Shown here: positions 15,850 to 37,381 of the stretch, piece after piece
Layout: every line of letters begins with the position of its first letter
Numbering within the stretch: the stretch's first letter is position 1
DNA from: a bacterium
GTDB taxonomy: Bacteria; Chloroflexota; Dormibacteria; Aeolococcales; Bog-877
Assembly (NCBI GenBank): GCA_021785655.1
Contig: JAJYET010000003.1
Coordinates: forward strand, 34,937-98,936
Length of the DNA: 64,000 nucleotides
Direction of reading: 5' to 3'
Position numbers and translations under genes: made by a program
The notes under the pieces: generated by a model
Told to the model about the DNA's origin: nothing
Databases searched by the model: none
What the model saw: only the letters and a program-made list of their open reading frames with translations

Positions 15850-16113
15850 CCCCCTCCGAGCCTCCTCGGGCTTCCCGCTCCAGCCGCCGGGACTGCTCGG
15901 CCTCCAGCCCGGGCACCAGCTGGCCGTTGGCGGTCACCACGCGCCACCAGGGTAGACCGCGGGAGGTGGCCAGCACCCTCCCGACCGCGCGGGCAGCCCC
16001 AGGGTGACCGGCGAGGCGGGCCACATCCCCATACGTGAGGATTTCGCCTGGCGAGGTGTCCAAGAGGACGGAGGCCACCATCTCACGGAAAGAAGCCACC
16101 TGGTCATCATCCA
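15749..16113 (-). CDS. Alkyltransferase-like protein (ATL; MGMT DNA-binding fold lacking the catalytic Cys)
   Basis: FREMVASVLLDTSPGEILTYGDVARLAGHPGAARAVGRVLATSRGLPWWRVVTANGQL is the Ogt/MGMT helix-turn-helix region, with PWWRV replacing the PCHRV active site. The start was set to in-frame GTG near 16113. The 3' end overlaps the convergent paaK by about 100 nt. Confidence 0.6.
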
Positions 16114-16702
16114 CGGTCCGGTGGCGCCCGGTCTCCTGCCGACTGCTGAGGAAGACCGGTCGAGTCGCGCCTGGCTCGGGCACCGGTGCCCCCTCCATCT
16201 CGACTTCGAGAACCTGGACCACCTGCTTGTGGCCTGGTCCAGCTCCAGGTGGACCGCCAGGTCTCACGGGTCGAGCAACTGGCCAGGGCTAAGCCGGGCC
16301 CGAGGTCCCGGCCGGCCTCATCATCGCCCGGCCGGCCGGGTGCTTCGCGAGCCGCGACCACCGTTTGCGACTTGGGCAACTCGGCTGCCTGGCGGTCTCC
16401 TCGCCACCGCCCGAGCCGTGGCGGACCACGTGTCCCCCTGATAGAGCTGGTCTCCGACCGTCATCGCACCGGGAAGGTGTGGGTCAGTTCCGGACGGACC
16501 CAGACCTTCAAGCGGCCCTGAACCTCAGGCCATGGGGGCGGGACAGCCCCGCCCGCGGCGGGCCGCTCGCCGGCAGGCCCGGCCGTCGGCGCCGTGAGCC
16601 CCCTGGTACTGCGGAGGTGGGCCGCCGTAAGGGCAGGGTAGCGCAGGCCCTGGACCGGCTGGGATAAAAAGGCGTCCCAGGAGATTCGCCCGGAGGAGGC
16701 GC

Positions 16703-17377
16703 TCAGCCGCTGCTCCGAGAGGAGCGGACCCTGGAGGTCAGACCCTCTCCCGGAGGGCCGAAGAGGCGGTCACCGGCATCCCCCAGCCCCGGGACTATGT
16801 ACCCACGCTCGTCCAGGCTGGGATCCACGGCAGCGCACCAGACCTCTACCCCCGGAGCCTCGGCATGGAAGCGCTGCAGTCCCGGCTGGCTGGCCACGAC
16901 GCTCAGGACCTGGACTCGAGCCGCCTGCCGCCTCTCCACGAATCGAACCGCCTCGATGAGCGACCCACCCGTGGCCAGCATGGGGTCGCAGACGACCACC
17001 CGCCGGCCGGTCAGATCGGCGGGGAGCCCGTCGAGATAGCAGATGGCGGCCAGGGTGGTCTCGTCGCGCTTCAACCCCAGATGGGCGACATCACAGGTCG
17101 GAGCCACCAACTGCACCCCCGGGACCATGCCCAGCCCGGCCCTCAGGATGGGCACCAGAAGCGGCGCCTCCACGATCTCCTGGCACTCCGCCTCCCCCAC
17201 CGGGGTCCGCACGGTGAGATGCCTGGTCTCCAGATCGGACAGCGCCTCGAAGGCGAGAAAGCTGGCCACCTCGGCAATCAGCTCGCGAAAGCGAGAGCGC
17301 GGGGTCGCCTCGGCCCGCAGCTGGGCCAGGCGATCCGCCACCGTAGGGTGGCGGCAGACGTGGACCGGATCCGTCAT
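16703..17377 (-). CDS. upp: Uracil phosphoribosyltransferase
   Basis: The 224-aa ORF is collinear with Upp, including VVVCDPMLATGGS, the PRPP-binding motif. Confidence 0.85.
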   Translation of the reverse strand: MTDPVHVCRHPTVADRLAQLRAEATPRSRFRELIAEVASFLAFEALSDLETRHLTVRTPVGEAECQEIVEAPLLVPILRAGLGMVPGVQLVAPTCDVAHLGLKRDETTLAAICYLDGLPADLTGRRVVVCDPMLATGGSLIEAVRFVERRQAARVQVLSVVASQPGLQRFHAEAPGVEVWCAAVDPSLDERGYIVPGLGDAGDRLFGPPGEGLTSRVRSSRSSG

Positions 17378-17923
17378 GGGTCGATCATCGCTCCGCCGGC
17401 CGTGGCGGCGCCGAGCCGCGCCGACCCACCCCTCCGTGGAGGCCCACTGAGCATGCCATCCCCACCAACTCGGCAGCGCTCATTGGACCTCCGGGCCCCT
17501 ACCACTCACTGATGGAGTTCGCCATCCCCGGGAGCAGCCCAGCGCCCACGCCAGGGCCCAGCCCCTGGCGGAGCGCTCCCGCGCTCGCCGGCGCGGCCGC
17601 CAGCACCGCGACGGTCCGGCGCAGTAGGTGCCCCAGCCGAGCGGCTGGCGGCCCCACACGCGCTCCTCCTTCTCGAGACCAGGGCATCAAGGGCTCGACT
17701 CAGGGCCCGGTGCCGGAAGGCCTGCCGGCTCGGAAACTGGTGGTGCATCTAGGACTTGCCCCGCTCCGCCGCCCGGCCCGGTTGCGCCATGCTGGTCACC
17801 TCATACCCGCGGCGGATGAATTGCGCCACCGCCACCTCGAGCGGGCGGTCCGGGTCGTACCGAGTTCGCTCGATCTCGCCACCTGCAACTCGATCAGCCA
17901 CGTCGCCAAGCATGGAGCGGAAA

Positions 17924-17952
17924 TTGACACCAACTGCGGCCCGGTCCAGAAT
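17924..17952 (+). promoter_or_regulatory. Putative paaA promoter, TTGACA-N17-CAGAAT
   Basis: A perfect -35 hexamer and a 17-nt spacer sit about 35 nt upstream of the paaA RBS GGAAAGGAG and ATG 17987. This AT-containing element stands out in a 70% GC background. Confidence 0.4.
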
Positions 17953-17986
17953 GGCAACCGAACGACCGGTCGGGAAAGGAGCAGCC

Positions 17987-18940
17987 ATGCCCCCCACCTA
18001 CTCCGAGAACAGCCGGGAACTGGCCTTCCAGGAAGCCATTGACGCGGACCGAACTGTGGAGCCGCGCGACTGGATGCCCGACCGGTACCGCAGCACCATG
18101 GTCCGCCAGATCGCCCAGCACGCCCACTCCGAGATCATCGGGATGCAGCCTGAGGGGAATTGGATCACCCGTGCTCCCTCCCTGAGGCGCAAGGCCATCC
18201 TCCTGGCCAAGGTCCAGGATGAGGCCGGTCACGGCCTCTACCTGTACGCGGCGGCCGAAACCCTCGGGGTGGAGCGGAGGGAGTTGCTTGACCTTCTCCT
18301 CGCCGGCCGCCAGAAGTACTCCAGCATCTTCAACTACCCGACCCTGACCTGGGCGGACGTGGGAGCGATCGGCTGGCTGGTGGATGGTGCTGCCATCACC
18401 AACCAGCTCGCCCTCACAAAGACCTCCTACGGGCCGTACGCCCGGGCCATGGTGCGGATCTGCCGGGAGGAGTCCTTCCATCAGCGCCAGGGATTCGAGT
18501 TGCTGGCCGAGCTCTCGCGAGGCACGCCGGCCCAGCACCAGATGGCCCAAGACGCGGTGAATCGGTGGTGGTGGCCGGCGTTGATGATGTTCGGGCCGCC
18601 GGACGCGGAATCCCCCAACACGGCCCAGTCGATGGCCTGGAAGATCAAGCGGGTGAGCAACGACGATCTCCGCCAGCGGTTCGTGGACATGACCGTGCCC
18701 CAGGCCGGGGCTCTGGGCCTGGATCTGCCGGACCCGCAACTGCACTGGAATGAGACCCGACGCCACTACGATTTCGGGCCCATCGACTGGGATGAGTTCC
18801 GCCAGGTGGTTGGCGGCCAAGGACCCTGCAACGTCCAGCGAACCGCGGTTCGCCGGGCAGCCGACCAAGAGGGGGCCTGGGTCCGGGAGGCGGCCAGAGC
18901 GTGGGAGGGCCGGCAGCAGGGCCGGACGTCCGCAGCGTGA
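17987..18940 (+). CDS. paaA: 1,2-phenylacetyl-CoA epoxidase subunit A
   Basis: [31 protein letters not shown]...[22 protein letters not shown] is the PaaA ferritin-like di-iron protein. ATG at 17987 has a strong SD. The ORF-track start at 17756 is an upstream extension. Confidence 0.9.
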
Positions 18941-19224
18941 GCGAGGCGGACGACTGGCCACTCTGGGAGGTCTTCCTGCGAGGAAGGCGGGGTCTCTCGC
19001 ACCAACATGTGGGGTCACTTCACGCCCCCGATCCGGAGCTGGCTCTGCAGAACGCCCGCGATCTGTACACCCGGAGAGGTGAGGGGGTCTCCATCTGGGT
19101 GGTCCGATCCACAGAGGTACACGCCTCTGATCCCGACGACCAAGGGCCGTTGTTTGATCCACCCGCGGACAAAGCCTATCGCCACCCCACCTTCTACAAG
19201 GTGCCCGAGGACCTGCACCTTTGA
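18937..19224 (+). CDS. paaB: 1,2-phenylacetyl-CoA epoxidase subunit B
   Basis: [50 protein letters not shown]...RHPTFY is near-identical in layout to E. coli PaaB (95 aa). The GTG start overlaps the paaA stop (GTGA). Confidence 0.85.
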
Positions 19225-19997
19225 CGGTCGAAGCTGCTGAGCTCTCGGCCGTCGGCATTCACGAGGTGGCACTGGCACTGGGGGACGACTGCCTGGTGCT
19301 GTCCCATCGGCTGGCCGAATGGACCGCCCATGCGCCCGAGCTGGAGGAGGAGGTGGCCCTCGCCAACCTGGCCCTGGACCTCCTGGGACAGGCCCGCTCC
19401 CTGCTGACCCTGGCCGGTGAGACGGAGGGCCGGGGCCGGGATGAGGACCAGCTCGCCTACTGGCGAGACGACCGGGAGTTCCGCAATCTCCTGCTGGTGG
19501 AGCAACCCAACGGGGACTTCGCCGTCACCATGACCCGCCAGCTGTTCTTCTCCACCTACCAGGAGCTCCTCTACGCCCGAATGGCGGCCGGGACCGAACC
19601 GCGGCTCGCTGCCATCGCCGCCAAGGGCGTCATGGAGGCCCGCTACCACCTCGAGCATTCCCGCCTCTGGGTCCAACGGCTGGGCGGGGGAACTGAGGAG
19701 AGCCACCGTAGGATGCAGCGCGCACTGGAGCTGCTCTGGCCCTACACGCACGAGCTCTTCGAGGCCAGCCCGCCCTGGGTTCGGGCCGCCGACGTGGGCG
19801 CGCTGCCGCCGCCGACCGCGATCGAGGAGCCCTGGCGGCATTCGATCGAGGCTCTGCTGGCGGCCTCGCAACTGGAGATCCCGGACTTCAGGGCATGGCA
19901 GTCGGGGGGGCGCCAGGGGCGCCATTCCGAGCACCTAGGTCACCTCTTGGCGGAGATGCAGCACCTGCACCGCTCCCACCCCAATGCCACCTGGTAG
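19221..19997 (+). CDS. paaC: 1,2-phenylacetyl-CoA epoxidase subunit C
   Basis: The 258-aa ferritin-like PaaC sits immediately after paaB. The TTG start overlaps the paaB stop (TTGA). Confidence 0.85.
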   Translation: MTVEAAELSAVGIHEVALALGDDCLVLSHRLAEWTAHAPELEEEVALANLALDLLGQARSLLTLAGETEGRGRDEDQLAYWRDDREFRNLLLVEQPNGDFAVTMTRQLFFSTYQELLYARMAAGTEPRLAAIAAKGVMEARYHLEHSRLWVQRLGGGTEESHRRMQRALELLWPYTHELFEASPPWVRAADVGALPPPTAIEEPWRHSIEALLAASQLEIPDFRAWQSGGRQGRHSEHLGHLLAEMQHLHRSHPNATW

Positions 19998-20463
19998 GGA
20001 CCTGGCCCAGCGGCTGGCCGCCGACGTGCCAGATCCCGAGCTCCCCTTCCTCACGCTGGGGGATCTGGGGATCCTCCGCCGGGTGGAGGTGGATCTCGAG
20101 GGCACGGTTAGGGTGGTGCTGACCCCCACGTACTCGGGATGTCCCGCTGTCAGCCATATGGCCAAGGAGGTCCGGCGCACCCTGATGGACGCGGGATTCC
20201 ATTCGGTCCAGGTGGACACCGAGTTGTCACCGGCCTGGAGCACCGATCGACTCGGTCCGAACGCCAGGGCCAAGTTGGAGGCCATGGAGATAGCCCCTCC
20301 CCCACCCCCGGCCGCAGCTCCGGTCGCGCTCACCCTCAAGTGCCCGCACTGTGGGTCGCTGCGGACCAGAGAGCTGAGTCACTTCGGCTCAACCGCCTGC
20401 AAGTCGCTCTGGCGGTGTCAGAATTGCAGCGAGCCCTTCGAGCACTTCAAGGCGCTGCGGTGA
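19984..20463 (+). CDS. paaD: Phenylacetate-CoA oxygenase subunit PaaD (DUF59/MIP18-like, with C-terminal Cys cluster)
   Basis: LTLGDLGILRRVEVD...VVLTPTYSGCPA (SufT/PaaD-like) plus C-terminal CPHCGS...CQNCSEPF. The ATG overlaps the paaC end by 14 nt. Confidence 0.8.
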   Translation: MPPGRDLAQRLAADVPDPELPFLTLGDLGILRRVEVDLEGTVRVVLTPTYSGCPAVSHMAKEVRRTLMDAGFHSVQVDTELSPAWSTDRLGPNARAKLEAMEIAPPPPPAAAPVALTLKCPHCGSLRTRELSHFGSTACKSLWRCQNCSEPFEHFKALR

Positions 20464-26600: not shown

Positions 26601-27812
26601 TCAGCCCAGAAGCCGCAGCAGTCTGGCCATACCCTCAGCCAGGTCCTGGTCAGCCAAGGCATAGGAGAAGCGCACATAGCCGGGGGCCCCGAAGGCCTCT
26701 CCCGGAACCACGGCTACCCGGGCCTCCTCCAGGAGGACCGCAGCCAGCTCGGCGGAGGTGTCCACCCGGTGCCCGCCGATCTCCCTTCCCAGCGCACCTC
26801 GAACTGAGGGAAACAGGTAGAAGGCCCCCTCCGGCGCCGGACACTCGAAGCCCGGGACCCGATCCATGTAAGCCAGCATCGCCGACCGGCGGCGGGCGAA
26901 GGCCGCGCGCATCTCCTCCAGCGCGGGCGCTCCGTGCTCCAGCGCGGCCAGGGCGGCCAGCTGGGAGATGTTGCTGATGTTGCCGCAGACGTGGGACTGC
27001 AGGTTGGCGGCGGCCTCCACCGTGCTCCGCGGCCCCACCATCCAGCCCACGCGCCACCCGGTCATCGAGTAGGCCTTGGCCACCCCATTGAGCCGAAGAG
27101 CCCGACCTGCAAGCTCGGGCACCACCGCCGGGAGGGAGTTGAATTCGGCACCATCGTAGGTGAAGTGGTCGTAGATCTCGTCGCACACCACCCACAACCC
27201 GTGGTCCAGCGCCCAGCGCCCGATGGCCAGCATCTGCTCCCTCCGGTACACCGACCCGGTGGGATTGGATGGGGAAACGAACAAGAGAGCCTTAGTCCTG
27301 GGGGTTAGATGCTGGTCCAGGTCCCCCGGGCTGACGCGGAAGCCGGTGGCCTCAGTGGTGGGAACTGGCACCGCCCGCCCCCCCGCCAGAGCGATGGCCT
27401 CGGGGAAGGTCACCCAGTACGGGCTGGGGACCAGCACCTCGTCTCCGGGGTCAAGGAGGACGGTAAAGGCATGGGCCACGGCCTGCTTGGTCCCGTTGGT
27501 GATCAGCACCTGCTCGGGAAACAGGTCCAACCCGTCCCGCCTTCCGGTCTGGCGGGCCACGGCTTGCCGAAGCTCCGGCAGGCCCGCCGCCGGGGTGTAG
27601 TGGTGCAGCCGCGGGTCGTGGCACGCCCTTGCAGCGGCCTCGACCACCACCTGGGGGGTGTCGAAATCGGGCTCCCCGGCAGCGAACGAGATCACGTCGC
27701 TCCCAGCGGCACGGAGCTCCTTGACCCGCCGGTCCAGGGCGAGGGTGGCCGACTCCGAGATCGCGGCCACCCGCCGGGAGATCGCCTGGTGATCCGCTTC
27801 CCCTGAGGGCAC
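26601..27812 (-). CDS. Aspartate/aromatic aminotransferase, class I PLP (AspAT Ib-like)
   Basis: ISRRVAAISESATLALDRRVKELRAAGSDVISFAAGEPDFDTP...NPTG...SKAYSMTGWRVG matches Thermus-type AspAT. The start was moved to GTG at 27812, which is preceded by GGAGGA at -7. The ORF-track start at 27863 would overlap serC. Confidence 0.8.
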   Translation of the reverse strand: MPSGEADHQAISRRVAAISESATLALDRRVKELRAAGSDVISFAAGEPDFDTPQVVVEAAARACHDPRLHHYTPAAGLPELRQAVARQTGRRDGLDLFPEQVLITNGTKQAVAHAFTVLLDPGDEVLVPSPYWVTFPEAIALAGGRAVPVPTTEATGFRVSPGDLDQHLTPRTKALLFVSPSNPTGSVYRREQMLAIGRWALDHGLWVVCDEIYDHFTYDGAEFNSLPAVVPELAGRALRLNGVAKAYSMTGWRVGWMVGPRSTVEAAANLQSHVCGNISNISQLAALAALEHGAPALEEMRAAFARRRSAMLAYMDRVPGFECPAPEGAFYLFPSVRGALGREIGGHRVDTSAELAAVLLEEARVAVVPGEAFGAPGYVRFSYALADQDLAEGMARLLRLLG

Positions 27813-27826
27813 TAGACTTCCTCCTG

Positions 27827-28972
27827 ATGGCCACCGATAGTGGTGCCGACCTGCTGATACCACAGGATCTGCTTCCTGGCGATGGGCGGTTCGGGTGTGG
27901 CCCCTCTAAGGTACCGGCTACGGCCGTCGCCAGACTGGCCGAGGCCGCACCTCTGCTCCTCGGCACCAGTCACCGTCAGCCCCCGGTGAAACAGCTGGTG
28001 GGCCGCCTCCGTTCCGGGATCAGCCAGTTGTTCTCCCTGCCGGAGGGGTACGAGGTGGCTCTGGGGAATGGTGGTGCAAGTCTCTTCTGGGATCTGGCGA
28101 CCCTCTGTCTGATCGAGCGCCGCAGCCAGCACCTGGTTTTCGGGGAGTTTTCATCCAAGTTCGCCCAGATCGTGCAAAACGCTCCTCACCTGGCGCCTCC
28201 GGAGGTGATCGAAAGCGAGCCGGGCACCTGCCCCCAGCCGCACTCCGATGAGGACCTGGATGCCTACTGCCTCACCCACAACGAGACCTCCACAGGGGTC
28301 CAGGGCGAGGTTCGCCGGATTGGCTCACCGGGGCAGTTGGTTCTGGTCGACGGCACCTCAGCGGCGGGAGGGCTGCCACTGGACGCCGGCTCCGTCGACG
28401 CCTACTACTTCTCCCCGCAGAAGTGCTTTGCCTCGGACGGCGGTCTCTGGGTCGCGCTCCTCTCGCCCGCCGCGATCGAGCGCTCCGACCGACTCGGGAG
28501 CACATCCCGGTGGATTCCGAGCTCCCTAGATCTGAACCTGGCGCTCCAGAACTCGCGCCAGGACCAGACCTACAATACCCCCGCCGTGGCGACTCTGTTT
28601 CTCTTCGCCCAGCAGGTGGAGTGGATCCTTGACCAGGGCGGGTTGTCCTGGGCGGCCGCCCGCTGCCGCCAGTCGGCGAGCATCGTGTACGGGTGGGCGG
28701 ACCGGGCAGATTACGCAACACCCTTCGTCCAGGATCCGAACCGGCGCAGCCAGGTGGTCGCCACCATCGACCTCTCCCCCGAGGTCCCCGCCGGCGCAGT
28801 TTCCAAGGTTCTCAGGCGAAACGGGATCGTGGACATCGACGGCTACCGCAAGCTGGGACGCAACCAGTTGCGCATCGGGCTCTTCCCCGCCGTCGAGCCG
28901 GAGGACGCCGCCCGCCTCACCCGGGCGATCGACTGGGTGGCCGAACGGATCGGTGTCGCAGATCACGCTTAG
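27827..28972 (+). CDS. serC: Phosphoserine aminotransferase, actinobacterial SerC type
   Basis: DGRFGCGPSKVPA...FGTSHRQPPVKQLVGRLRSGISQLFSLPEGYEVALGNGGA...NETSTGV...YYFSPQKCFASDGGLW is collinear with mycobacterial SerC (DGRFGSGPSKV...). Confidence 0.85.
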   Translation: MATDSGADLLIPQDLLPGDGRFGCGPSKVPATAVARLAEAAPLLLGTSHRQPPVKQLVGRLRSGISQLFSLPEGYEVALGNGGASLFWDLATLCLIERRSQHLVFGEFSSKFAQIVQNAPHLAPPEVIESEPGTCPQPHSDEDLDAYCLTHNETSTGVQGEVRRIGSPGQLVLVDGTSAAGGLPLDAGSVDAYYFSPQKCFASDGGLWVALLSPAAIERSDRLGSTSRWIPSSLDLNLALQNSRQDQTYNTPAVATLFLFAQQVEWILDQGGLSWAAARCRQSASIVYGWADRADYATPFVQDPNRRSQVVATIDLSPEVPAGAVSKVLRRNGIVDIDGYRKLGRNQLRIGLFPAVEPEDAARLTRAIDWVAERIGVADHA

Positions 28973-29041
28973 GGGCGCGGCGGCGGGGCGCACGCGGTGC
29001 GCTGATCCGGGGGCGGTCTCCGCCCGCCGACCCGGGACGCG

Positions 29042-30001
29042 GTGATGCTCGCCGACGACTTCGGCGTAGGCGACAAGGTCGAGGAGGCATTCCTTCGGCT
29101 GGGCTCAGGCGACCTCGAGGTCCTGCGCCCCTTGCTTCGGGAGCGGGCCGAGGCCCAGGTTGGAGATGCGGTGCTTGCCGGGCTGGTGGCCCAGCAGGTG
29201 CTGCTCGACCTCTCCGCGCGCACCCTGCTGGACTTTGCGTCCCCGGGCGACCTCGCCGCGTGGCTGGCGATTCGGATCCCCCAGACGGCGGCCCTGTTCC
29301 TCGGTGCCCTGCCCCCCCTGTCGGCTGCCCCCACCCCAGCCCCATCGGGCAGCCTGCGGACGGTGTGGTCCCGGGTCTGGGCGGCGGCCGTCACCCTTCC
29401 CACGCTGGCGGCGGCGACCGCCGTGGCGTCGATCGGATCCGCCTCCGCCGCGGTCCTTCTCACGGCGACCATCGCCTCGTCTCCGGCCGCCCTGGGGCCC
29501 GCGCCGTCGCTGGTCACCCCCCTTCCCATTGCCTCCAGCCCCCGGGTGCTTCCGGCACCCACCCCCCAGGCCGTCCCCGCCCCCCGCAGCGTCCCAACCA
29601 CCACTCCCCCGCGATCCGCGTCCGTTCCCGCCGCCCTCGCACCGGTCTCGGTTTCCAGCCCCCCTCCGGCCACTTCTCCGCACACCACGCCGACTCCCCC
29701 GACCACGCCACCCACACCACCCCCACCATCCCCACCGCCCACCTCCACTCCACCTCCGGCCCCCACCCCCTCGCCTGGCTGTGGGAGCCAGGACCAGGGG
29801 CCGCCCGGGTGCCCCTGCACGGGCGGTGACGACCACGACGACGGCGGACCGCCAGGCTGTCACTGCCCGGTGAACGGCGACGGGTGCCACCACCATCATC
29901 ACGACCATCCGCCGTGCGACCCGCCGGCTGGCGGGTCACCCAATCCTGCCCCTGATCCGGGCGCGGCATCCCCTGGACATGCGGATCGCCCTGGCAGCTG
30001 A
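29042..30001 (+). CDS. Hypothetical protein: N-terminal alpha domain, hydrophobic segment, Pro/Thr/Ser-rich linker, Cys/His-rich C-terminal tail
   Basis: 319-aa ORF with high GC3 throughout. The tail is GCGSQDQGPPGCPCTGGDDHDDGGPPGCHCPVNGDGCHHHHHDHPPCDPP. The stop overlaps the start of the downstream recombinase gene by 23 nt. Confidence 0.45.
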   Translation: MMLADDFGVGDKVEEAFLRLGSGDLEVLRPLLRERAEAQVGDAVLAGLVAQQVLLDLSARTLLDFASPGDLAAWLAIRIPQTAALFLGALPPLSAAPTPAPSGSLRTVWSRVWAAAVTLPTLAAATAVASIGSASAAVLLTATIASSPAALGPAPSLVTPLPIASSPRVLPAPTPQAVPAPRSVPTTTPPRSASVPAALAPVSVSSPPPATSPHTTPTPPTTPPTPPPPSPPPTSTPPPAPTPSPGCGSQDQGPPGCPCTGGDDHDDGGPPGCHCPVNGDGCHHHHHDHPPCDPPAGGSPNPAPDPGAASPGHADRPGS

Positions 30002-30902
30002 CGAGTACCTGACCTACCTGGCGGTAGACAGGGCCAGGAGCCCGCAGACCCTGCGGGCCTACGGGCTAGACCTGCAGCGGGCCCTCGAATTCTGGTCGGG
30101 ATTGAGCCGGCGGCCCGAGCAGGTCTCAGAGCTCGACCGCGACCTGGTTCGCGCCTATCAGCGCCACCTGGGTGAGAGCGGCCTGGCCCTGAGCTCCCGG
30201 GCCCGCCGCCTCCAGGCGCTCCGCAGCTTTCTGCACCACTGCGAGCGGGAGGGGTGGACCGACCAGGACCTCGCCGCCCACATCGACATCCCCAAGGTGT
30301 CGGCTCCACTCCCCAAGCCGCTCAGCACCGCCGATACGCGGCGCCTTCTGGCGTCGCTCCCCGTCGCCGCCGAGGAGGAGCTGCGCGACCGGGCCCTGGT
30401 CCACTTCCTGGTCAGCTCGGGGTGCCGCATCTCCGAGGCCCTGGCCCTCGACCGCAGTGACATCAACCCCGAGGGCCGGCTGGTGGTGCGGGGAAAGGGC
30501 TCGAAGGAGCGCATGGTGGAGCTGACTCCGGCGGCCCTGGACGCCATTTCCAGTTACCTGGAGGCCCGCCACGATCGGGAATCCGCGCTCTTCCTCAATT
30601 ACGACCGTCGCTCCAAGGCCCGCGGCGGTCGGCGCCTCACGGCCGCCGGCGCTCGCCACGTGATCCGCCGCCTGCGCCGGGAGCTGGGGGTGGAGGGGCT
30701 GCGCTCACCCCACGTCCTGCGTCACACCACGGCCACCGAACTGCTGACCATCACCGGCAACGTCCGGCTGGTCCAGGAGGTGCTGGGGCACGCCAACCTC
30801 AACACGATGCAGGGGTACACCAAGGTGGTGGACCAGTCGCGCCGGGCCGCCTACCGGGAGCTGGCGCGCCGGCTCGAGCCCTCGCTGCCGCCTACGGAGT
30901 AG
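29979..30902 (+). CDS. Tyrosine site-specific recombinase, XerC/XerD family
   Basis: N-terminal SAM-like core-binding domain (EYLTYLAVDRARSPQTLRAYGLDLQRALEF). The catalytic domain has R...HVLRHTTATELL...GHANLNTMQGYTKV (R-H-R-Y signature). 307 aa. Confidence 0.8.
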   Translation: MRIALAADEYLTYLAVDRARSPQTLRAYGLDLQRALEFWSGLSRRPEQVSELDRDLVRAYQRHLGESGLALSSRARRLQALRSFLHHCEREGWTDQDLAAHIDIPKVSAPLPKPLSTADTRRLLASLPVAAEEELRDRALVHFLVSSGCRISEALALDRSDINPEGRLVVRGKGSKERMVELTPAALDAISSYLEARHDRESALFLNYDRRSKARGGRRLTAAGARHVIRRLRRELGVEGLRSPHVLRHTTATELLTITGNVRLVQEVLGHANLNTMQGYTKVVDQSRRAAYRELARRLEPSLPPTE

Positions 30903-31632
30903 CCCCGGCCGCCGGAAGAGGGAACTTGAAGGTGCCCAGGAACAGCTGGAAGTCGGCCCCGGTGGTGGCGGCGCCGCCCTTGGCCACGATCAGGAAGGCC
31001 AGCCCCGGGGAAGCCTGGAAGGCCACTGCCCCCAGGTAGCCATTGGCGGCCGCGAAGGTGACCAGTGACGTGGTCACGCCGTACACGACGACCGCGGAAA
31101 CGCCGGAGGTGGCGGTGCCCGACGGGGCAGCGGGGGGGAGTTGCGCCGTGCTGGCCGCGGTGGTGACGGAGATCGACTCGCCACCGGGACCGTTGAAGTC
31201 GATCGCGCCGGTGGGAAGCTGGGCGAACTGCCACCCAGCGGGATAGAGGACCGACCAGTTGGAGCTGCCACCGGACTGGTAAGTCTGGAAGGAGGCGGTC
31301 GAGGTGTCCTCCGGATTGGAGGTCACCCATCCGGTGGCGGTGTTGCCCCTGACCTCCCACCAGCCTCCCCCGGCGGAGGTCTCGGAGACGATGGGCAGGG
31401 TGACCCCTTGGGAGATCACCTGGATCACGGGGGCCGTGGTGCTCGGCGCCGTCCGGAAGTTCACCCCGTCGGGAGCGATGACCGTGACCGAGGTCGGCGG
31501 GGGCGACGCGGACGGGGTCGGCGACGGCCGAGGTGACGGGCCAGCCGGCCGAGGGCTGCTGGCACCACACCCCGCTACCACCGCCGCCACCACTACCAAA
31601 AGCGTGCAGGTGACAGGGGCCCGCATGTGCAT
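30892..31632 (-). CDS. Lipoprotein with bacterial SH3 (SH3b) domain
   Basis: Signal peptide plus lipobox (LLVVVAAVVAGCGASSP), a Pro/Ser/Thr-rich linker, then VNFRTAPSTTAPVIQVISQGVTLPIVSETSAGGGWWEVRGNTATGWVTSN (SH3_3-like). Confidence 0.65.
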   Translation of the reverse strand: MHMRAPVTCTLLVVVAAVVAGCGASSPRPAGPSPRPSPTPSASPPPTSVTVIAPDGVNFRTAPSTTAPVIQVISQGVTLPIVSETSAGGGWWEVRGNTATGWVTSNPEDTSTASFQTYQSGGSSNWSVLYPAGWQFAQLPTGAIDFNGPGGESISVTTAASTAQLPPAAPSGTATSGVSAVVVYGVTTSLVTFAAANGYLGAVAFQASPGLAFLIVAKGGAATTGADFQLFLGTFKFPLPAAGATP

Positions 31633-31635
31633 AAC

Positions 31636-32472
31636 CTACTCGGATGTCTGCTCGGCTGCCGCGATCCGTTGGTGAAGCTCGGCGGCGGCCCTGCTGGCCG
31701 CCTCGGCGAAGTCTCGGCCCCTGGACGCCGCCGCCACCCCGCGGGACACCGAGATCAGGTAGGAGCCCGCAGTCCCGGCCAGTTCCCGGACACAGGCCTC
31801 CAGATCGCCGCCCTGGGCCCCGACCCCGGGAATGAGCAGGGGAAGGCCAGGGGCCTCCTCCCGCACTCGGCCCAGCTCCTGCGGCCAGGTGGCCCCCACA
31901 ACGAGTCCCGCGGTGCCCGCCGGAGGCTCCCTGTCCCACATCGCCACGGCCTTGGCGACCTGGATGTAGAGGGGAGCGCCCCCTCCGCCGACCGGCAGGT
32001 CCTGGAAGTCCGCGGCGCCGGGATTGCTGGTCCGACAGAGCACGAAGGCGAGGCGGTCGGCCCGGTCCAGGAAGGGGCTGAGCGCGTCTCTCCCCAGGTA
32101 GGGATTCACCGTGCAGGCGTCCGCTCCCAGCCCGTCGAAGATGGCGCGGGCGTAGGCGGCGGCGGTGCTGCCGATGTCCCCCCGCTTGGCGTCTACCACC
32201 ACCAGCGCTCTCCGGCCCGCCGCCTGCACCACTTCCCGAAGGAGTTCCCAGCCCTCATGCCCCAGTTGCTCGAAGAACGCCGAATTGGGCTTGAAGGCCG
32301 CCGCTTGGTCGGCAGTGGCCTCGATCAGCTCTAGGCAGAATCGCCGCACCGCGCCCACACCAACCCCGAGGTGGGGCGGCAGGGAAGCGGGCTCCGGGTC
32401 GATGCCGACACACAGTCGGGATGTGGAGGCAGCCAGCCGGTCTCGGAACGGTTCCCGCGATCCCCCTACCAC
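31636..32472 (-). CDS. pyrF: Orotidine 5'-phosphate decarboxylase (type 2, long form)
   Basis: LCVGIDPEPASLP...VVVDAKRGDIGSTAAAYARAIF...ADACTVNPYLGRDAL matches type-2 OMP decarboxylase. GTG start. Confidence 0.8.
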   Translation of the reverse strand: MVGGSREPFRDRLAASTSRLCVGIDPEPASLPPHLGVGVGAVRRFCLELIEATADQAAAFKPNSAFFEQLGHEGWELLREVVQAAGRRALVVVDAKRGDIGSTAAAYARAIFDGLGADACTVNPYLGRDALSPFLDRADRLAFVLCRTSNPGAADFQDLPVGGGGAPLYIQVAKAVAMWDREPPAGTAGLVVGATWPQELGRVREEAPGLPLLIPGVGAQGGDLEACVRELAGTAGSYLISVSRGVAAASRGRDFAEAASRAAAELHQRIAAAEQTSE

Positions 32473-32660
32473 GAAGTCCGGGAGGTACTGGTCTGCGCTG
32501 CCCCCGGGGCCTGGGGGGCGTACGGAATCTGAATCCGGTCATGCTGAGATTGCATGCAGCCGGAGCAGACGGAGCTGATCTCCCCATCGAGGAGCACCGC
32601 TGCCAGCCGGTAGATCGGGAACTCCCGGCCGCAGTTGGCGCAGCGCCGCATCCAGGGCAT
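32466..32660 (-). CDS. Small zinc-ribbon protein (CxxC-x21-CxxC), 64 aa
   Basis: MPWMRRCANCGREFPIYRLAAVLLDGEISSVCSGC... The ATG at 32660 is preceded by GAGGAGG at -9, GC3 is high, and the stop overlaps the pyrF GTG by 7 nt. Confidence 0.45.
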   Translation of the reverse strand: MPWMRRCANCGREFPIYRLAAVLLDGEISSVCSGCMQSQHDRIQIPYAPQAPGAAQTSTSRTSW

Positions 32661-32728: not shown

Positions 32729-32805
32729 CGGGGAGTGGCGCAGATGGTTAGCGCACCAGTCTGGGGGACTGGGGGTCGCAGGTTCGAGTCCTGTCTCCCC
32801 GACCA
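32729..32805 (+). tRNA. tRNA-Pro (anticodon GGG)
   Basis: Hand-folded cloverleaf with acceptor CGGGGAG/CTCCCCG, D-arm GCGC-AGATGGTTA-GCGC, anticodon stem CCAGT/ACTGG with loop CUGGGGG (GGG at 34-36, G37), T-arm GCAGG-TTCGAGT-CCTGT, discriminator A and an encoded CCA. Confidence 0.85.
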
Positions 32806-34873: not shown

Positions 34874-35647
34874 TCCCTTGTGACCTGCCACTCTCTCCCA
34901 GGCTGGCCCCACCTGGATCACCTCGAGGCGACGCCCAGGGTCAGCGGGGCCACCAGCGCGATCAAGTCGGCGACCCACCCACCACGAAGTGAGGCCGAAC
35001 CCGGGCGCCGCGATTGGTGCGGTGCTGCGGGGGCCCGCCACCGATTCCGGCCAGCAGGGATTCGCGGTGACGGCCCCAACTATAGCCCCCATGTGGCTCC
35101 CCGCCAGACGACGACACTCTGACTCCGCTGGGGCTGCGGCGCACCGGATCCTTCAAGTCCGGTTCTCGGCCCCGACAGCACGACAGCCCCGCCAGCTTGA
35201 GCGCGACCCCGGCTCCGGTTCCTCCGGCTGCCGAGGAGCCGCGCCCGGTACGCGCCACCTGGCGGGCAGTGCCACTGCATCTCAGTGCCCCGAGCTGCTC
35301 CCGGATTGGTGTCTACTCGCCCCGTCGCCCAGGCAGGACCGGCGCCCCACCGTCCAGACCGGGCCGTCCGCACTTTCACCCTGGCCAACTGGACCGGGTG
35401 GGTCCCGCTCCGTGTTGCCGGGCTCGGCGTCGGCCATGGGTTGCGCCGACTCCCTGTTCCAGCTACACTCGCGGCCACAACCAAGGGCGAGCCTACAGGT
35501 CGGGTGCGGACGGCGCCACTCTGGGGAGAGGCAAGGTCACGCGGAATCAGTGAGCCATCGGATCCACCAATCAGCCGGCCGCCCCCTGCTGGTGCAGGCG
35601 TCGGGGACGGAGCCGGTGCCATCAGTGTGTTCGTGGAGGGAAACACC

Positions 35648-37381
35648 ATGCACCTGTTAGATCGTCGAATGCGAATTCTGACCCGGCTGGGGGCCATTCT
35701 CGGAGCTGTGGCAGTGGTTTCCGCGGCCCAGTTGAGCGCAGGACCAGCTGTCGCTGCCGGGGGCGGATGGGTTAAGGCGCCCGCACAGGGTGAGCTGGAC
35801 TGCAACGGGTACAGCACGGTGCAGAAGTCGATCAAAGTCACGCTCCCCTGCACCGATCCTCACGGAGCCAACGGGTCACGCTTCTTCGACAACGGCTACT
35901 ACGTGGGCCACGACGAGCCCAACCTCCGGTTCGTGTCCAACGCCCCCGGATCCGGAGACAACGTCACCTGGACCCAGACGCTGCCCGTGGACCCGACATC
36001 CACCCCAACCGTCAGCACGCCGGGCAGCGACGTGACCCACTTCTTTGAGCTCTCCGTGGCGCCCTGGTTCTCCATGGCCATCTGCGACCCCAACTCCTAC
36101 CCGCAGACGCCGTGCACGCCCATGAGCAACTCCAATGCCCCCTCTGGCACCTACCCAGGAGGCGGAAGCGCGTTCATGGAGCTGCAGTTCTACCCGCCCG
36201 GGTTTGCCCCCTTCGTGAACAGCATCAGCTGCAACATCCCAGGCAGCACCACCCCGCTCACCGACGGGAACGGGGGATGGTGCGCGGCGCTCACCATCGA
36301 CAGTCTGGAGTGCACCAACCAGTTCAATTACTGCAACCCCGCGTGCACCGAGCCGGTCAACTTCGCCTTCATCCAGAAGAACGGCGTGCCCACCGGCCCC
36401 CCCAGCCCCCAGAGCGCCAACCTCTTGACCTTCACCCCTAACTCCCAAACCCTGTTCTTCTCTCCCGGGGATACGATCACGACCCAAATCTTCGACAACC
36501 CAAGACTGAAGGCGCTCGAGGCCATAGTCACGGACGACACGACGCACCAGAGCGGGTACATGGTGGCGGACGCCGGCAACGGCTTCCAGAACACCAACTA
36601 CCAGACCTGCGCCGGCACGCCGTTCAACTTCCAGCCCGAGTACAACTCCGCGGCCGCACCCAACTTCGTGCCGTGGGCGGCCTTGACGACCGACATCAGC
36701 ACCACCTTCGAGATCGGCCACTTCACTCCCTGCACCTCGCTGAGCAACCCTGTACGCGGGACGAGCGGGTACAACGTATGCAATGGTGCCTACGAGTCCG
36801 CCACCACACGGGACGGAGCCGTGGCACCGGCAACCCACACGCCGATCGAGGCATCGAAGGGAGATGGGCCCTGCTTCCCTGCGGGCGACACGCACGGCCT
36901 CGGGGGATCGGGAGGCGAGACGACGGCCCCCAACCTGGTGACCGGCTGCGACAACTTCAACAACGGAGGCGACCTGGACTACGATGGCACACCCTACTGG
37001 CCGGACTGGCCCACCGGGACCAGCCCCACCAGCTTCCCCTCCACCATGGTGATCCAGCCTCCTGGTTTCGGGAAGAGGTCGCAGGGGTACAGCCAGGTCG
37101 AGTTCGAGACTGACAACCCAGCCTCAGACTTCCTCTGCAACGTCAGCACCGGGCTGGGCTGCAGCGTCCCACCCCCCGGCCCGGGGAAGTTCTACCCGTA
37201 CTGGAGCCAGGTCTCGGGCGGCGGCTCAGCCTGCGTCTGGGAGTTCGGCAACATCGGAGGGACTGACTTCGGAGGAGCCGCGCAGTATGGCTCGGCCGGC
37301 GCCTCCGGCAACGGTTACAACGGCACCGACGGCAGCTCGCTGATGCCCCTCACCTCTGGGGGGTGCGTGGCCAGCTCCTGA
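35648..37381 (+). CDS. Secreted cysteine-rich hypothetical protein (577 aa) with signal peptide, possibly Tat-type
   Basis: ATG at 35648 is preceded by GGAGGG. MHLLDRRMRILTRLGAILGAVAVVSAAQLSAGPAVAA is the signal peptide. The mature part is N/G/T/S/P/F/Y-rich with about 30 Cys and very few Lys/Arg/Glu. I recognised no domain. The ORF-track start at 35285 is an upstream extension. Confidence 0.6.
   Translation: MHLLDRRMRILTRLGAILGAVAVVSAAQLSAGPAVAAGGGWVKAPAQGELDCNGYSTVQKSIKVTLPCTDPHGANGSRFFDNGYYVGHDEPNLRFVSNAPGSGDNVTWTQTLPVDPTSTPTVSTPGSDVTHFFELSVAPWFSMAICDPNSYPQTPCTPMSNSNAPSGTYPGGGSAFMELQFYPPGFAPFVNSISCNIPGSTTPLTDGNGGWCAALTIDSLECTNQFNYCNPACTEPVNFAFIQKNGVPTGPPSPQSANLLTFTPNSQTLFFSPGDTITTQIFDNPRLKALEAIVTDDTTHQSGYMVADAGNGFQNTNYQTCAGTPFNFQPEYNSAAAPNFVPWAALTTDISTTFEIGHFTPCTSLSNPVRGTSGYNVCNGAYESATTRDGAVAPATHTPIEASKGDGPCFPAGDTHGLGGSGGETTAPNLVTGCDNFNNGGDLDYDGTPYWPDWPTGTSPTSFPSTMVIQPPGFGKRSQGYSQVEFETDNPASDFLCNVSTGLGCSVPPPGPGKFYPYWSQVSGGGSACVWEFGNIGGTDFGGAAQYGSAGASGNGYNGTDGSSLMPLTSGGCVASS

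Follow-up and report, generated by a model that had tools for sequence, protein, structure and literature searches.

A putative single-pass membrane protein of Dormibacterota with a predicted sigma-2-like domain and a Cys/His-rich tail

In the ECF52 protein SCO4117 of S. coelicolor, an ECF domain and a zinc finger precede a transmembrane (TM) helix, beyond which lie a Pro-rich region in the periplasm and a sensor domain; a proteolysis model has been put forward for this protein (PMC8999054). The window analysed here, a 64,000-nucleotide stretch of bacterial DNA, encodes a 318-residue, acidic-to-neutral protein that would resemble ECF52, ECF48/53 and IutY of P. putida in joining a sigma-type domain in the cytoplasm, through a membrane helix, to a long Pro-rich outer region with an end module (PMC8999054). 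Control by proteolysis, as in these proteins, is plausible. The described proteins have complete sigma-2 and sigma-4 regions, followed ahead of the membrane helix by a zinc-finger anti-sigma domain, and an outer module of the carbohydrate-binding or FecR type, whereas the window protein would have a sigma-2 domain only, no zinc finger and a short Cys/His cluster as its outer module.

A second point of comparison is CorE, a metal sensor that relies for detection on its Cys-rich extension and CxC motif (PMC8999054); the Cys-rich segment binds Cu, Cd or Zn, thereby setting activity (PMC8999054, PMC7826278). The window protein is similar to CorE/CorE2 of Myxococcus xanthus and to ECF287/ECF288 in combining a sigma-type domain with a C-terminal Cys-rich CxC segment (PMC8999054, PMC7826278). 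The Cys-rich domain of CorE is cytoplasmic and touches sigma-2 and sigma-4 directly, whereas here a membrane helix and a stalk of ~90 residues part the tail from the sigma-2-like domain, so the tail would be outside the cell.

Sigma-2-type domains are also known to work without a complete sigma factor, either as an anti-sigma decoy (PhyR) or as parts of two-protein sigmas (RsoA and phage T4 gp55). In the SigO-RsoA pair, sigma-2 and sigma-4 reside on separate polypeptides (PMC7826278). PhyR retains sigma-4 and a receiver domain, and RsoA and gp55 are small, soluble and encoded beside their partners; none of PhyR, SigO-RsoA and T4 gp55 is membrane-anchored, unlike the family protein. In canonical ECF sigmas the DAED motif of region 2.2 binds the clamp helices of the RNA polymerase beta' subunit, and EcfP of ECF43, which is without DAED, is inactive on its own (PMC8999054).

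Actinobacterial anti-sigma factors of the RsdA/RskA/RslA type have a helical cytoplasmic domain of ~90 residues, one membrane helix and often a Pro-rich outer C-terminus, like the window protein (PMC7826278). The HxxxCxxC zinc motif of the zinc-binding anti-sigmas is missing here, and the fold predicted for the window protein is sigma-2-like. Unlike the genes for class I anti-sigmas, this gene adjoins no ECF sigma gene in the window or the 30 fetched loci. No anti-sigma family in Pfam or NCBIfam matched, and the best structural matches were sigma factors. We rejected an anti-sigma assignment because there is no zinc motif and no sigma neighbour, and the predicted fold is not that of an anti-sigma domain. 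Our literature search on Dormibacterota sigma factors and on sigma proteins without region 4 found nothing relevant to the protein.

Table 1. Coordinates of the gene, its domains and its same-strand neighbours in the window.
Feature	Position	Strand	Basis
serC, phosphoserine transaminase, serC_3 type, 72 nt 5' of the gene	27827..28972	+	TIGR01366, 524 bits, above cut-off
Family-protein CDS, 318 aa plus stop	29045..30001	+	ORF listing, dN/dS and frame tests, conserved ATG
N-terminal domain, aa 1-95, four-helix, ECF sigma-factor region-2-like	29045..29329	+	predicted model
Juxtamembrane helix, aa 105-115, LRTVWSRVWAA, carrying Arg residues N-terminal to the TM helix	29357..29389	+	predicted helix, K/R counts
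Single TM helix, aa 120-142, rich in Ala, Gly, Ser and Thr	29402..29470	+	helix prediction, hydropathy, dN/dS
Pro/Thr/Ser-rich stalk, aa 151-243, predicted extracytoplasmic and disordered	29495..29773	+	composition, dN/dS
Cys/His/Asp cluster, aa 244-292, PGCGSQDQGPPGCPCTGGDDHDDGGPPGCHCPVNGDGCHHHHHDHPPCD	29774..29920	+	dN/dS, composition
Overlap of 23 nt: last 8 gene codons (..HADRPGS and stop) and first xer codons (MRIALAAD)	29979..30001	+	sequence
xer, Xer-type tyrosine recombinase, 307 aa	29979..30902	+	Pfam Phage_integrase and Phage_int_SAM_1

The gene and its genomic neighbourhood

The original prediction took high GC3 as a sign that the ORF is coding. The ORF is indeed coding, but the GC3 argument did not hold: the plus-strand value of 0.80 is non-discriminating by itself, with minus-strand ORFs 28969..29820 and 29105..29908 reaching 0.835 and 0.743. 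Comparison with five close orthologues was decisive. Only plus frame 0 is free of stop codons throughout the five, the others carrying 1-8, and in all four regions compared its dN/dS is the lowest. Indels among these orthologues are 48, 12 or 3 nt long, all multiples of 3. Relative to the orthologue in locus L001, the N-domain has a dN/dS of 0.16 at a dS of 0.68, and 41 of the 64 substitutions fall at third codon positions; the neighbouring serC has a dN/dS of 0.12. Across most of the gene the ratio lies between 0.14 and 0.31, falling to 0.05 in the Cys/His tail. The frame is settled because the ratios, stop codons and indels all favour the plus frame, and the plus-strand ORF is a real gene. 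The two minus-strand ORFs, which had been named as possible real genes, are ruled out by the stop codons and dN/dS values in the orthologues.

The ORF spans 29042..30001 on the plus strand and encodes 319 residues when read from GTG 29042, an alternative start one codon 5' of ATG 29045. The position of this ATG is the start in 5/5 close orthologues, in which the preceding codon is CTG, and the orthologue comparison places a GGAGGAG Shine-Dalgarno sequence 5 nt upstream of the conserved ATG. ATG 29045 is therefore probably the true start.

Scans of the protein against Pfam and NCBIfam returned no family, an exact-sequence look-up of the window protein found no record, and word-index homologue searches yielded only 1 and 5 short proteins. 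An exhaustive search of representatives, by contrast, recovered 21 clusters at 50% identity (E<1e-3). The protein, originally described as an orphan, accordingly has no Pfam or NCBIfam family but does belong to a small family of homologues. Evidence for the family also comes from 21 further loci. We fetched 30 related loci besides the window. All named family members are from Candidatus Dormibacterota, an uncultured soil phylum throughout which the gene is single-copy and syntenic. Judged by these sequences, the family is Dormibacterota-specific and vertically inherited.

Gene order is the same throughout the loci: aspAT points away from serC, which is followed on its own strand by the gene and xer, and then by SH3 and pyrF on the opposite strand. 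serC lies directly upstream in every locus long enough to show it. The recombinase scores 227 bits against the NCBIfam XerC model (cut-off 335) and 209 bits against XerD (cut-off 330), both below the equivalog cut-offs, and by these scores it is a Xer-type enzyme assignable to neither XerC nor XerD. We take it to be a housekeeping Xer, strongly conserved between species. Its start is backed by conserved N-termini ~8 codons ahead of an EYLTYL motif. The 23-nt same-direction overlap with the recombinase gene, as originally predicted, is real and kept in orthologues: its length is the same in L002-L005, L007 and L015, and dS drops to 0.07 inside it. Elsewhere the junction varies, with an overlap of 23, 4, 50 or ~149 nt across loci and gaps of 29 nt in L010 and 217 nt in L024. 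In L013, xer lies 2.3 kb away and the gene is intact; a TnpB-like insertion between the two accounts for this sole wide separation. Homologues adjoin the same tyrosine recombinase in 23 of 24 sufficiently long loci (window included), so the originally suggested check of whether they always do so gave one exception.

The gene and xer probably share one transcript. We detected no terminator-like site in the serC/gene/xer intervals and no sigma-70-type promoter, using scans that may not suit this phylum. No mobile-element genes or repeats were found around the gene. A tRNA-Pro gene lies 1.8 kb away, on the far side of SH3 and pyrF. We considered and rejected an integrated mobile element carrying integrase and Xis, since the block is housekeeping and syntenic and SH3 and pyrF stand between the tRNA-Pro gene and xer.

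Recombination directionality factors (RDFs) such as Xis belong to mobile elements and are small, soluble, basic proteins that bind DNA. What the gene shares with those for Xis/RDF proteins and Xer accessory factors is only its position immediately 5' of a tyrosine recombinase gene that it overlaps. Its product differs from them as a 318-residue membrane protein encoded in a housekeeping block, next to a Xer protein that is 95-97% identical between species (L002-L005, in which serC is 86% identical). The aspAT/serC/gene/xer/SH3/pyrF block is conserved as a whole, and therefore adjacency to xer is indistinguishable from inherited synteny. For these reasons we do not uphold the suggestion that the gene encodes an accessory or directionality factor: serC is equally adjacent, the junction is variable, and the predicted sigma region-2 fold is not that of an Xis/RDF protein. 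Nothing shows the gene product working with the recombinase; a functional tie would nonetheless fit a linkage that is this close, and often overlapping, across the phylum, and the explanation favored below takes the linkage as incidental.

Candidate regulatory partners were likewise not found nearby. A phmmer search with E. coli RpoE (E<1) identified no ECF-like ORF in the window and 15 loci, and neither the window nor any related locus contains sigma, anti-sigma or site-2 protease genes. A gene encoding sigma-4 only was not found in any locus.

Protein architecture and the predicted sigma-2-like fold

Family members have a common layout, in which a predicted cytoplasmic four-helix domain of ~90 residues is followed by an Ala/Gly-rich TM helix, a Pro/Thr/Ser stalk and a variable C-terminus rich in Cys, His and Asp. 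Each element of the architecture originally read from the window protein is borne out. The helical N-domain of about 90 residues is modelled as four helices with pLDDT values of 85-97. The single hydrophobic segment has a Kyte-Doolittle 19-residue maximum of 1.85, and the corresponding value is 1.6-2.2 in all full-length members. The TM helix has a dN/dS of 0.14 and is as well conserved as the N-domain. We found no signal peptide. Family members carry 1-5 K/R residues N-terminal to the hydrophobic segment and 0-2 C-terminal to it. Cys is nearly missing from the first 150 residues family-wide, being restricted to the C-terminal part, and the window protein has none there. These features support the originally proposed membrane anchoring, as a single pass, and suggest an N-in/C-out orientation.

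The predicted low-complexity segment of about 90 residues corresponds to the stalk, which is 39% Pro, 16% Thr and 14% Ser. It is the fastest-evolving part of the protein (dN/dS 0.30, with a 12-nt indel), and its DNA contains short CCACACCAC and CCCCCA repeats. The CxC/His-cluster tail is also present as described, with 7 Cys and 8 His among its 49 residues, including CPC, CHC and CHHHHHDH. A unit of ~16 residues, GPPGC[PH]C.(x)G(D/x)D, is repeated in the tail, and the L002 protein has one extra copy that arose as a 48-nt in-frame duplication. The dN/dS of 0.05 in the tail, at a dS of 0.77, is the lowest of the gene in this clade. Such strong constraint fits a specific function, for example metal binding or disulfide chemistry; the likeliest roles of the cluster are coordination of a transition metal or formation of redox-sensitive disulfides. 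The Cys/His cluster does not occur throughout the family, some members having only 0-2 Cys, and the tails are too divergent to align across the family. Metal sensing may be limited to this clade.

Family-wide conservation is found in the N-domain, in which 20 columns are invariant among 22 sequences: L27, R28, P29, L31, A35, D41, A45, L47, Q50, Q51, V52 and D55, followed by W73, L74, R77, Q80, T81, L84, F85 and G87. Sequence searches did not link this domain to sigma factors. Pfam Sigma70_r2 (PF04542) did not match the window protein at E<=0.1, and a Pfam scan of the 22 family N-domains at E<=10 returned no sigma family. Searching PDB sequences with the N-domain alignment as a profile gave only a chance match, NarI (E 0.85).

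We then considered predicted structure, using two N-domain models that were both predicted from one and the same 21-sequence alignment. In structural comparisons, the best 12 and best 15 matches were all sigma factors, and PhyR and phage T4 gp55 were among the structural matches. The sigma-2 region of M. tuberculosis SigC (2o7g) superposes on the models over 76-82 of 88 residues at 2.5 A. Foldseek against the PDB gave ECF sigmas and the PhyR sigma-like domain as best matches, with E values (E>=1.2) that are not significant. Alignment of the family profile by hhalign to three sigma-2 targets was also not significant (E 0.047-0.14); the targets were E. coli RpoE sigma-2, a 6-sequence ECF alignment in which one of the six sequences, RpoE, was confirmed against the PDB, and 120 PF04542 proteins. 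Together, the models indicate that the N-domain has a sigma-2-like predicted fold.

The three hhalign runs gave the same register, in which D41..[ML]A45.L47VAQ50Q51V corresponds to 'gd..dAeDlvQEvf' and W73L74 to the ECF 'WL'. In this non-significant register, the family agrees with ECF sigma-2 domains (PF04542; SigC 2o7g, B. subtilis SigW 5wuq, S. coelicolor SigR N-fragment 1h3l) at 'GD', 'A', 'Q' and 'WL', and the invariant QQ coincides with the 'QE' of ECF region 2.2. In the same register, which lacks significance, the DAED positions are hydrophobic or small, reading [ML]-A-x-L without an acidic residue in 22/22 members, and the 'N..D..R' of ECF regions 2.3-2.4 is not retained but replaced by Q-T..L-F.G. 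The acidic core-binding motif thus appears to have been lost or replaced. The protein further differs from ECF sigma-2 proteins in giving no significant PF04542 match, in having a membrane helix after the domain and in being without sigma-4: Pfam found no sigma-4 match (PF08281/PF04545) in the window protein, and beyond residue 90 the model consists only of a linker, the juxtamembrane helix, the membrane helix and disorder. With no sigma-4 and an apparent loss of DAED, the protein would therefore not be a self-sufficient sigma factor.

Possible modes of action

The explanation we favor, tentatively and at somewhat less than an even chance, is that the protein is a transmembrane pseudo-sigma or signalling protein, derived from an ECF sigma, whose metal- or redox-binding tail lies outside the cell, and not a directionality factor. 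As parts of this explanation, the N-domain would be a divergent derivative of ECF sigma-factor region 2, and the position of the gene between serC and xer would reflect an old conserved operon-like block rather than a role in recombination. The extended Pro/Thr/Ser stalk would present a compact Cys/His/Asp cluster outside the cell, in this clade as 2-3 CxC repeats and a His run. Depending on its state, this outer tail could then act on the sigma-2-like domain inside the cell by way of proteolysis, oligomerisation or conformation. The domain would in turn bind a partner able to recognise a sigma-2 surface, which may be RNA polymerase, a separate sigma-4-type protein or one of the anti-sigma type. 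By analogy, its mode of action is probably like that of transmembrane one-component ECF sigma/anti-sigma fusions (ECF52 SCO4117, IutY) or of the sigma mimic PhyR.

An unlikely alternative is that the protein acts at the envelope or surface, where the outer stalk and Cys/His knob would serve metal capture, storage, buffering or wall attachment and the N-domain would be a mere anchor or localiser with no regulatory output. Pro/Thr stalks are typical of wall-spanning spacers, and metallochaperones and metallothioneins have metal-binding tails resembling the His run and CxC motifs. A surface role would also agree with the tail being the most constrained region and with the lack of a nearby regulatory partner gene. 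Family-wide, however, conservation sits in the N-domain and TM helix and not in the tails, which diverge beyond alignment and in some members have no Cys. An anchor alone would not need a conserved 90-residue fold with invariant polar residues (R28, D41, Q50, Q51, D55, R77 and Q80).

Slightly less probable is a partnership with Xer, in which the protein would tether or regulate the co-expressed recombinase at the membrane or division site, partly replacing the role of FtsK for XerCD, with translational coupling setting the stoichiometry. The same-strand pairing with xer extends to lineages in which serC is 59-72% identical to that of the window, most lineages have a stop/start overlap, no terminator-like site separates the genes, and the lone wide separation is explained by the insertion. 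The linkage of serC, SH3 and pyrF is equally invariable, so adjacency is not xer-specific. The junction is also unfixed, as the gaps in L010 and L024 illustrate, and in L013 the gene has stayed intact despite its distance from xer. Moreover, the cytoplasmic domain is sigma-like, unlike any known Xer or FtsK partner, and the bulk of the protein would be extracellular.

We regard as improbable that the protein is half of a true split sigma, whose sigma-2-like domain would be freed by regulated proteolysis, pair with a separate sigma-4-type protein as in SigO-RsoA or act like T4 gp55/gp33, and direct transcription. The predicted fold and the QQ at the 'QE' place would suit such a role, as would a TM helix rich in small, helix-breaking residues (Pro, Gly, Ser), which may liken it to site-2 protease substrates; a split ECF sigma also has precedent (PMC7826278). 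Against it stand the altered DAED and 'N..D..R' positions and the lack of a sigma-4-only gene at any locus, although the motif arguments depend on the non-significant alignment register. Finally, that there is no gene here or that the frame is wrong, with a minus-strand ORF being real or the Pro-rich part a GC-rich artefact, has a negligible chance: the minus-strand ORFs are long and high in GC3, and the antisense frame sharing the wobble position also has a dN/dS below 1 (0.14-0.33), but only plus frame 0 stays open with the lowest ratios and in-frame indels, and distant homologues repeat the full-length architecture.

Returning to the pseudo-sigma or signalling protein that we favor, its interest lies in the unusual use of the domain. 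Sigma-derived domains usually belong to complete sigmas or to soluble mimics such as PhyR and RsoA, whereas here a sigma-2-only domain would be fixed to the membrane. The combination of a sigma-2-only domain, TM helix, Pro-rich stalk and Cys/His cluster has no entry in Pfam, NCBIfam or, as far as we found, the ECF classifications. If the N-domain still contacts RNA polymerase or an anti-sigma-like partner, the family would extend the known designs of ECF-type signalling; if it makes no such contact, it would still be a clean case of sigma-domain reuse. A bolder version, to which we give only a slim chance, is that the protein represents the sigma-2 portion of a split sigma, kept at the membrane, or else a decoy, and is switched or freed by metal binding or oxidation of the outer cluster and possibly tied to the co-translated Xer and the cell cycle. 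If true, it would represent an undescribed route in Dormibacterota by which an outside signal reaches RNA polymerase through half a sigma factor. The analysis removes a tempting but unsupported reading as a recombinase accessory, and it provides a name and a testable hypothesis for a "hypothetical protein" that marks Dormibacterota genomes.

Coding evidence and anatomy of the gene between serC and xer

The original prediction had taken the ORF between serC and xer to be coding because of its high GC3. The window is ~70% G+C, and GC3 is therefore weak evidence here, because it is equally high in the antisense ORFs of the region. Comparison with related sequences nevertheless bears the claim out. 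A Candidatus Dormibacteria MAG carries a partial orthologue (P0001/L001); of the 64 substitutions that separate it from the window, 41 fall at third codon positions, and dN/dS is 0.16 (at dS 0.68) for the gene and 0.12 for the neighboring serC. We also compared the window with four orthologues of full length, each taken from a different species-level genome (L002-L005). Across these five sequences, dN/dS was lowest in the forward frame for all four regions compared, and only this frame, out of six, was free of stop codons in all five; indels were 48, 12 or 3 nt in length only. The comparison excludes the minus-strand ORFs, which had been named as the competing reading, and refutes the possibility that the region holds no gene. 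On this comparative evidence, it is virtually certain that the gene is real. The start codon is conserved, with GGAGGAG upstream at a spacing of 5 nt in the orthologues, and the product is 318 residues long.

Features of the window and of related loci (L013, L017, L021) discussed in the text
Feature	Locus	Position	Strand	Evidence or remark
Phenylacetate catabolism cluster	window	14530..20463		two PaaA/PaaC-family proteins, PaaD, AMP-binding ligase
aspAT	window	26601..27863	-	overlaps serC at 27827..27863
serC	window	27827..28972	+	TIGR01366, 524 bits
Family gene	window	29042..30001	+	ORF listing; ATG at 29045
xer (tyrosine recombinase)	window	29979..30902	+	Pfam Phage_integrase, Phage_int_SAM_1
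SH3-domain lipoprotein gene	window	30892..31632	-	overlaps xer at 30892..30902
64-aa ORF	window	32466..32660	-	two CxxC pairs, zinc-ribbon-like
tRNA-Pro(GGG)	window	32729..32805		just past pyrF
698-aa ORF	window	35285..37381	+	many Cys
Insertion between gene and xer	L013	4767..7046
ORF at insertion	L013	4616..5692	-	weak Cas12f1-like TNB (TnpB) match, 24 bits (cut-off 26.3)
Family ORF	L017	5845..6942		365 aa, stop to stop
Family ORF	L021	2238..3407		389 aa, stop to stop

An AlphaFold2 model built from the 21-sequence family alignment contains a confident four-helix N-domain (residues 1-95; pLDDT 85-97; helices 9-19, 24-39, 42-57 and 67-86), followed by a short helix (105-115), a long helix (120-142) and then disorder. 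The 19-residue Kyte-Doolittle mean of the hydrophobic segment peaks at 1.85 in the window protein and at 1.6-2.2 in every full-length member, and the segment is flanked by one to five Lys/Arg residues on its N-terminal side versus none to two on its C-terminal side. Together with the acidic N-terminus and the absence of a signal peptide from the family protein, these features suggest an N-in/C-out topology, and the product is very probably a single-pass, N-in membrane protein. The stalk (residues 151-243) is 39% Pro, 16% Thr and 14% Ser. It leads into a cluster of seven Cys and eight His (residues 244-292, PGCGSQDQGPPGCPCTGGDDHDDGGPPGCHCPVNGDGCHHHHHDHPPCD) built from a ~16-residue repeat unit, which occurs a third time, in frame, in L002. 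Across the five close orthologues, dN/dS was 0.16 for the N-domain, 0.14 for the juxtamembrane and transmembrane region, 0.30 for the stalk, 0.05 (at dS 0.77) for the Cys/His cluster and 0.28 for the segment that follows it; in the window clade the gene is thus under its tightest constraint in the tail. Over the last eight codons dS drops to only 0.07, as expected from dual coding with xer. The protein had been described as a helical N-domain, one hydrophobic segment, a Pro/Thr/Ser stretch and a Cys/His tail, which is right, and the accompanying guess of a membrane-anchored metal-binding protein is reasonable.

Synteny and the junction with xer

We compared 30 related loci and found the same gene order wherever the contig was long enough: aspAT (-), serC, the gene, xer, SH3 lipoprotein (-) and pyrF (-). 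Counting the window, xer lies directly downstream in 23 of the 24 loci that include the downstream region, the exception being L013. In that locus a 2.3-kb insertion, probably an IS200/IS605-type element judging from its TnpB-like ORF, has split the pair. The junction itself is an overlap of 23 nt in the window clade, L007 and L015, 4 nt in L018 and L022, ~50 nt in L029 and ~149 nt in L012, L017, L021, L027, L030 and L031, and a gap of 29 nt in L010 and 217 nt in L024. In the ~149-nt clade, the family ORF runs into xer and ~49 codons can be read in two frames; the conserved tail motif GVPDL...VLG...GRH, in an extension predicted from the ORF, mirrors in another frame the N-terminus that is conserved in Xer.

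Identity among close loci is 95-97% for xer, versus 86% for serC and 72-78% for the family gene. A scan found no terminator-like site between serC, the gene and xer, and the three are probably co-transcribed. Elsewhere the window carries housekeeping genes (paa genes, enolase, a PALP enzyme, Der GTPase and phosphoglycerate mutase); its phenylacetate cluster is ordinary metabolism and provides context for the window as core chromosome. We conclude that the syntenic block is old, has been inherited vertically and belongs to the core chromosome. The recombinase is a chromosomal Xer, although it scores below both the XerC and the XerD equivalog cut-offs of NCBIfam, and we rejected a mobile-element integrase given the syntenic housekeeping block and the Xer-type recombinase.

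As listed, aspAT and serC overlap head-to-head by 37 nt, a geometry that recurs in L002-L004, and their true start codons are probably further in. The xer and SH3 lipoprotein genes overlap tail-to-tail by 11 nt. Directly downstream of pyrF, the 64-aa ORF, whose sole Pfam signal is a weak Zn_ribbon_NUD match, occupies the position of a 61-64-aa gene called in L007, L008, L010 and L012, and encodes a conserved small protein of the same block. The 698-aa ORF, with no match in a Pfam scan, has an internal Met, after which comes a signal-peptide-like segment. The stretch around it is lower in G+C (0.65) and shows strong GC and AT skews; the product of the ORF is probably a secreted Cys-rich protein.

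The family and the fold of its N-domain

Pfam and NCBIfam scans of the family protein returned no match. We searched 1.84 billion representatives exhaustively with HMMER, using the N-domain as query, and found 21 proteins at E<1e-3; the only source names attached to family members are Candidatus Dormibacteria, Dormibacteraeota and Dormiibacterota. In all 21, the conserved N-domain is accompanied by a single hydrophobic segment and a Pro-rich region, and the C-terminus is polar, with abundant Cys, His, Asp and Gly. The tails diverge fast: most members place their first Cys immediately after the stalk and have two to seven in total, a few have none, and the Cys/His cluster is specific to the window clade. 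In its place, the near-identical homologues at L017 and L021 carry a second kind of Cys-containing repeat (CPPPPPPPPCPPPPCTQPPP-type), which differs in copy number between them.

Twenty N-domain columns are invariant among 22 sequences, which give the motif LRP.L...A.....D...A.L.AQQV..D ... WL..R..QT..LF.G. ECF sigma region 2 has the pattern gd..dAeDlvQEvF ... WLy.Ia.N, and this resemblance led us to suspect ECF region 2. For the N-domain model, Foldseek ranked ECF sigmas at the top together with PhyR's sigma-like domain, though at E>=1.2. Using hhalign, we aligned the family profile with RpoE, a small ECF alignment and 120 PF04542 proteins; the E-values (0.047-0.14) were not significant, but the register was identical in all three runs, placing Q50-Q51 on the ECF Q-E, W73-L74 on W-L and F64 on the conserved Phe. 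A sigma-2-like fold is thus very likely for the N-domain, an assignment that is well supported for the predicted models, and it is likely, though unproven, that the domain descends from an ECF sigma.

The protein is nonetheless not a member of the ECF sigma family proper. No family member matched Sigma70_r2 in hmmscan, and neither the Pfam scan nor the AlphaFold2 model contains a sigma-4 domain. By the same non-significant hhalign register, the DAED positions of region 2.2 are [ML]-A-x-L in all members and the N..D..R of regions 2.3/2.4 is replaced by Q-T..L-F.G. The DAED stretch is required for beta' binding, and ECF43 sigmas that lack it are inactive until phosphorylated (PMC8999054).

Candidate functions

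The protein has the layout of transmembrane one-component ECF sigmas: the sigma-type domain is cytoplasmic, a single membrane helix follows, and an extracytoplasmic stalk rich in Pro carries the terminal module. In PhyR, a sigma-type domain acts as a decoy for an anti-sigma rather than as a full sigma. ECF52 SCO4117 combines an ECF domain, zinc finger, transmembrane helix, periplasmic Pro-rich region and carbohydrate-binding domain; IutY is another transmembrane example, and activation of such proteins by proteolysis is thought or shown (PMC8999054). CorE and CorE2 sense Cu, Cd or Zn through Cys-rich extensions with CxC motifs, and similar sensing extensions are suspected in ECF287 and ECF288 (PMC8999054, PMC7826278). 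Sigma-2 and sigma-4 are split over two polypeptides in SigO-RsoA (PMC7826278). Based on this layout, the Cys-rich sensors and the partial-sigma precedents, we tentatively propose an ECF-derived transmembrane protein, in which the outer Cys/His cluster would bind metal or change redox state and thereby control the action of the cytoplasmic sigma-2-like domain on a partner. The path that leads from fold to signal is one that we infer, and no partner gene lies nearby in the window or the related loci.

The main alternative is that the protein works with the Xer recombinase, which would explain why a tight, often overlapping junction is kept across the phylum. Linkage to serC, SH3 and pyrF is just as invariant, however, the junction is variable, the gene stays intact without overlap in L013 and L024, and the fold points to transcription rather than recombination; the original suggestion of a recombinase accessory or directionality factor is accordingly unsupported. 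The constrained tail would suit a protein that acts only outside the cell, in metal capture or wall attachment, but the family-wide conservation of the N-domain, invariant polar residues included, does not fit such a role. A true split sigma factor would be the most interesting possibility and is improbable.

The novelty lies in a protein family with a sigma-2-only domain, a membrane anchor and a Pro-rich stalk, which is absent from Pfam and NCBIfam and is a syntenic marker of Dormibacterota. Its host phylum is uncultured and its mechanism inferred, yet the family, which sits with ECF-type transmembrane regulators and sigma-domain mimics, would surprise a sigma-factor specialist.
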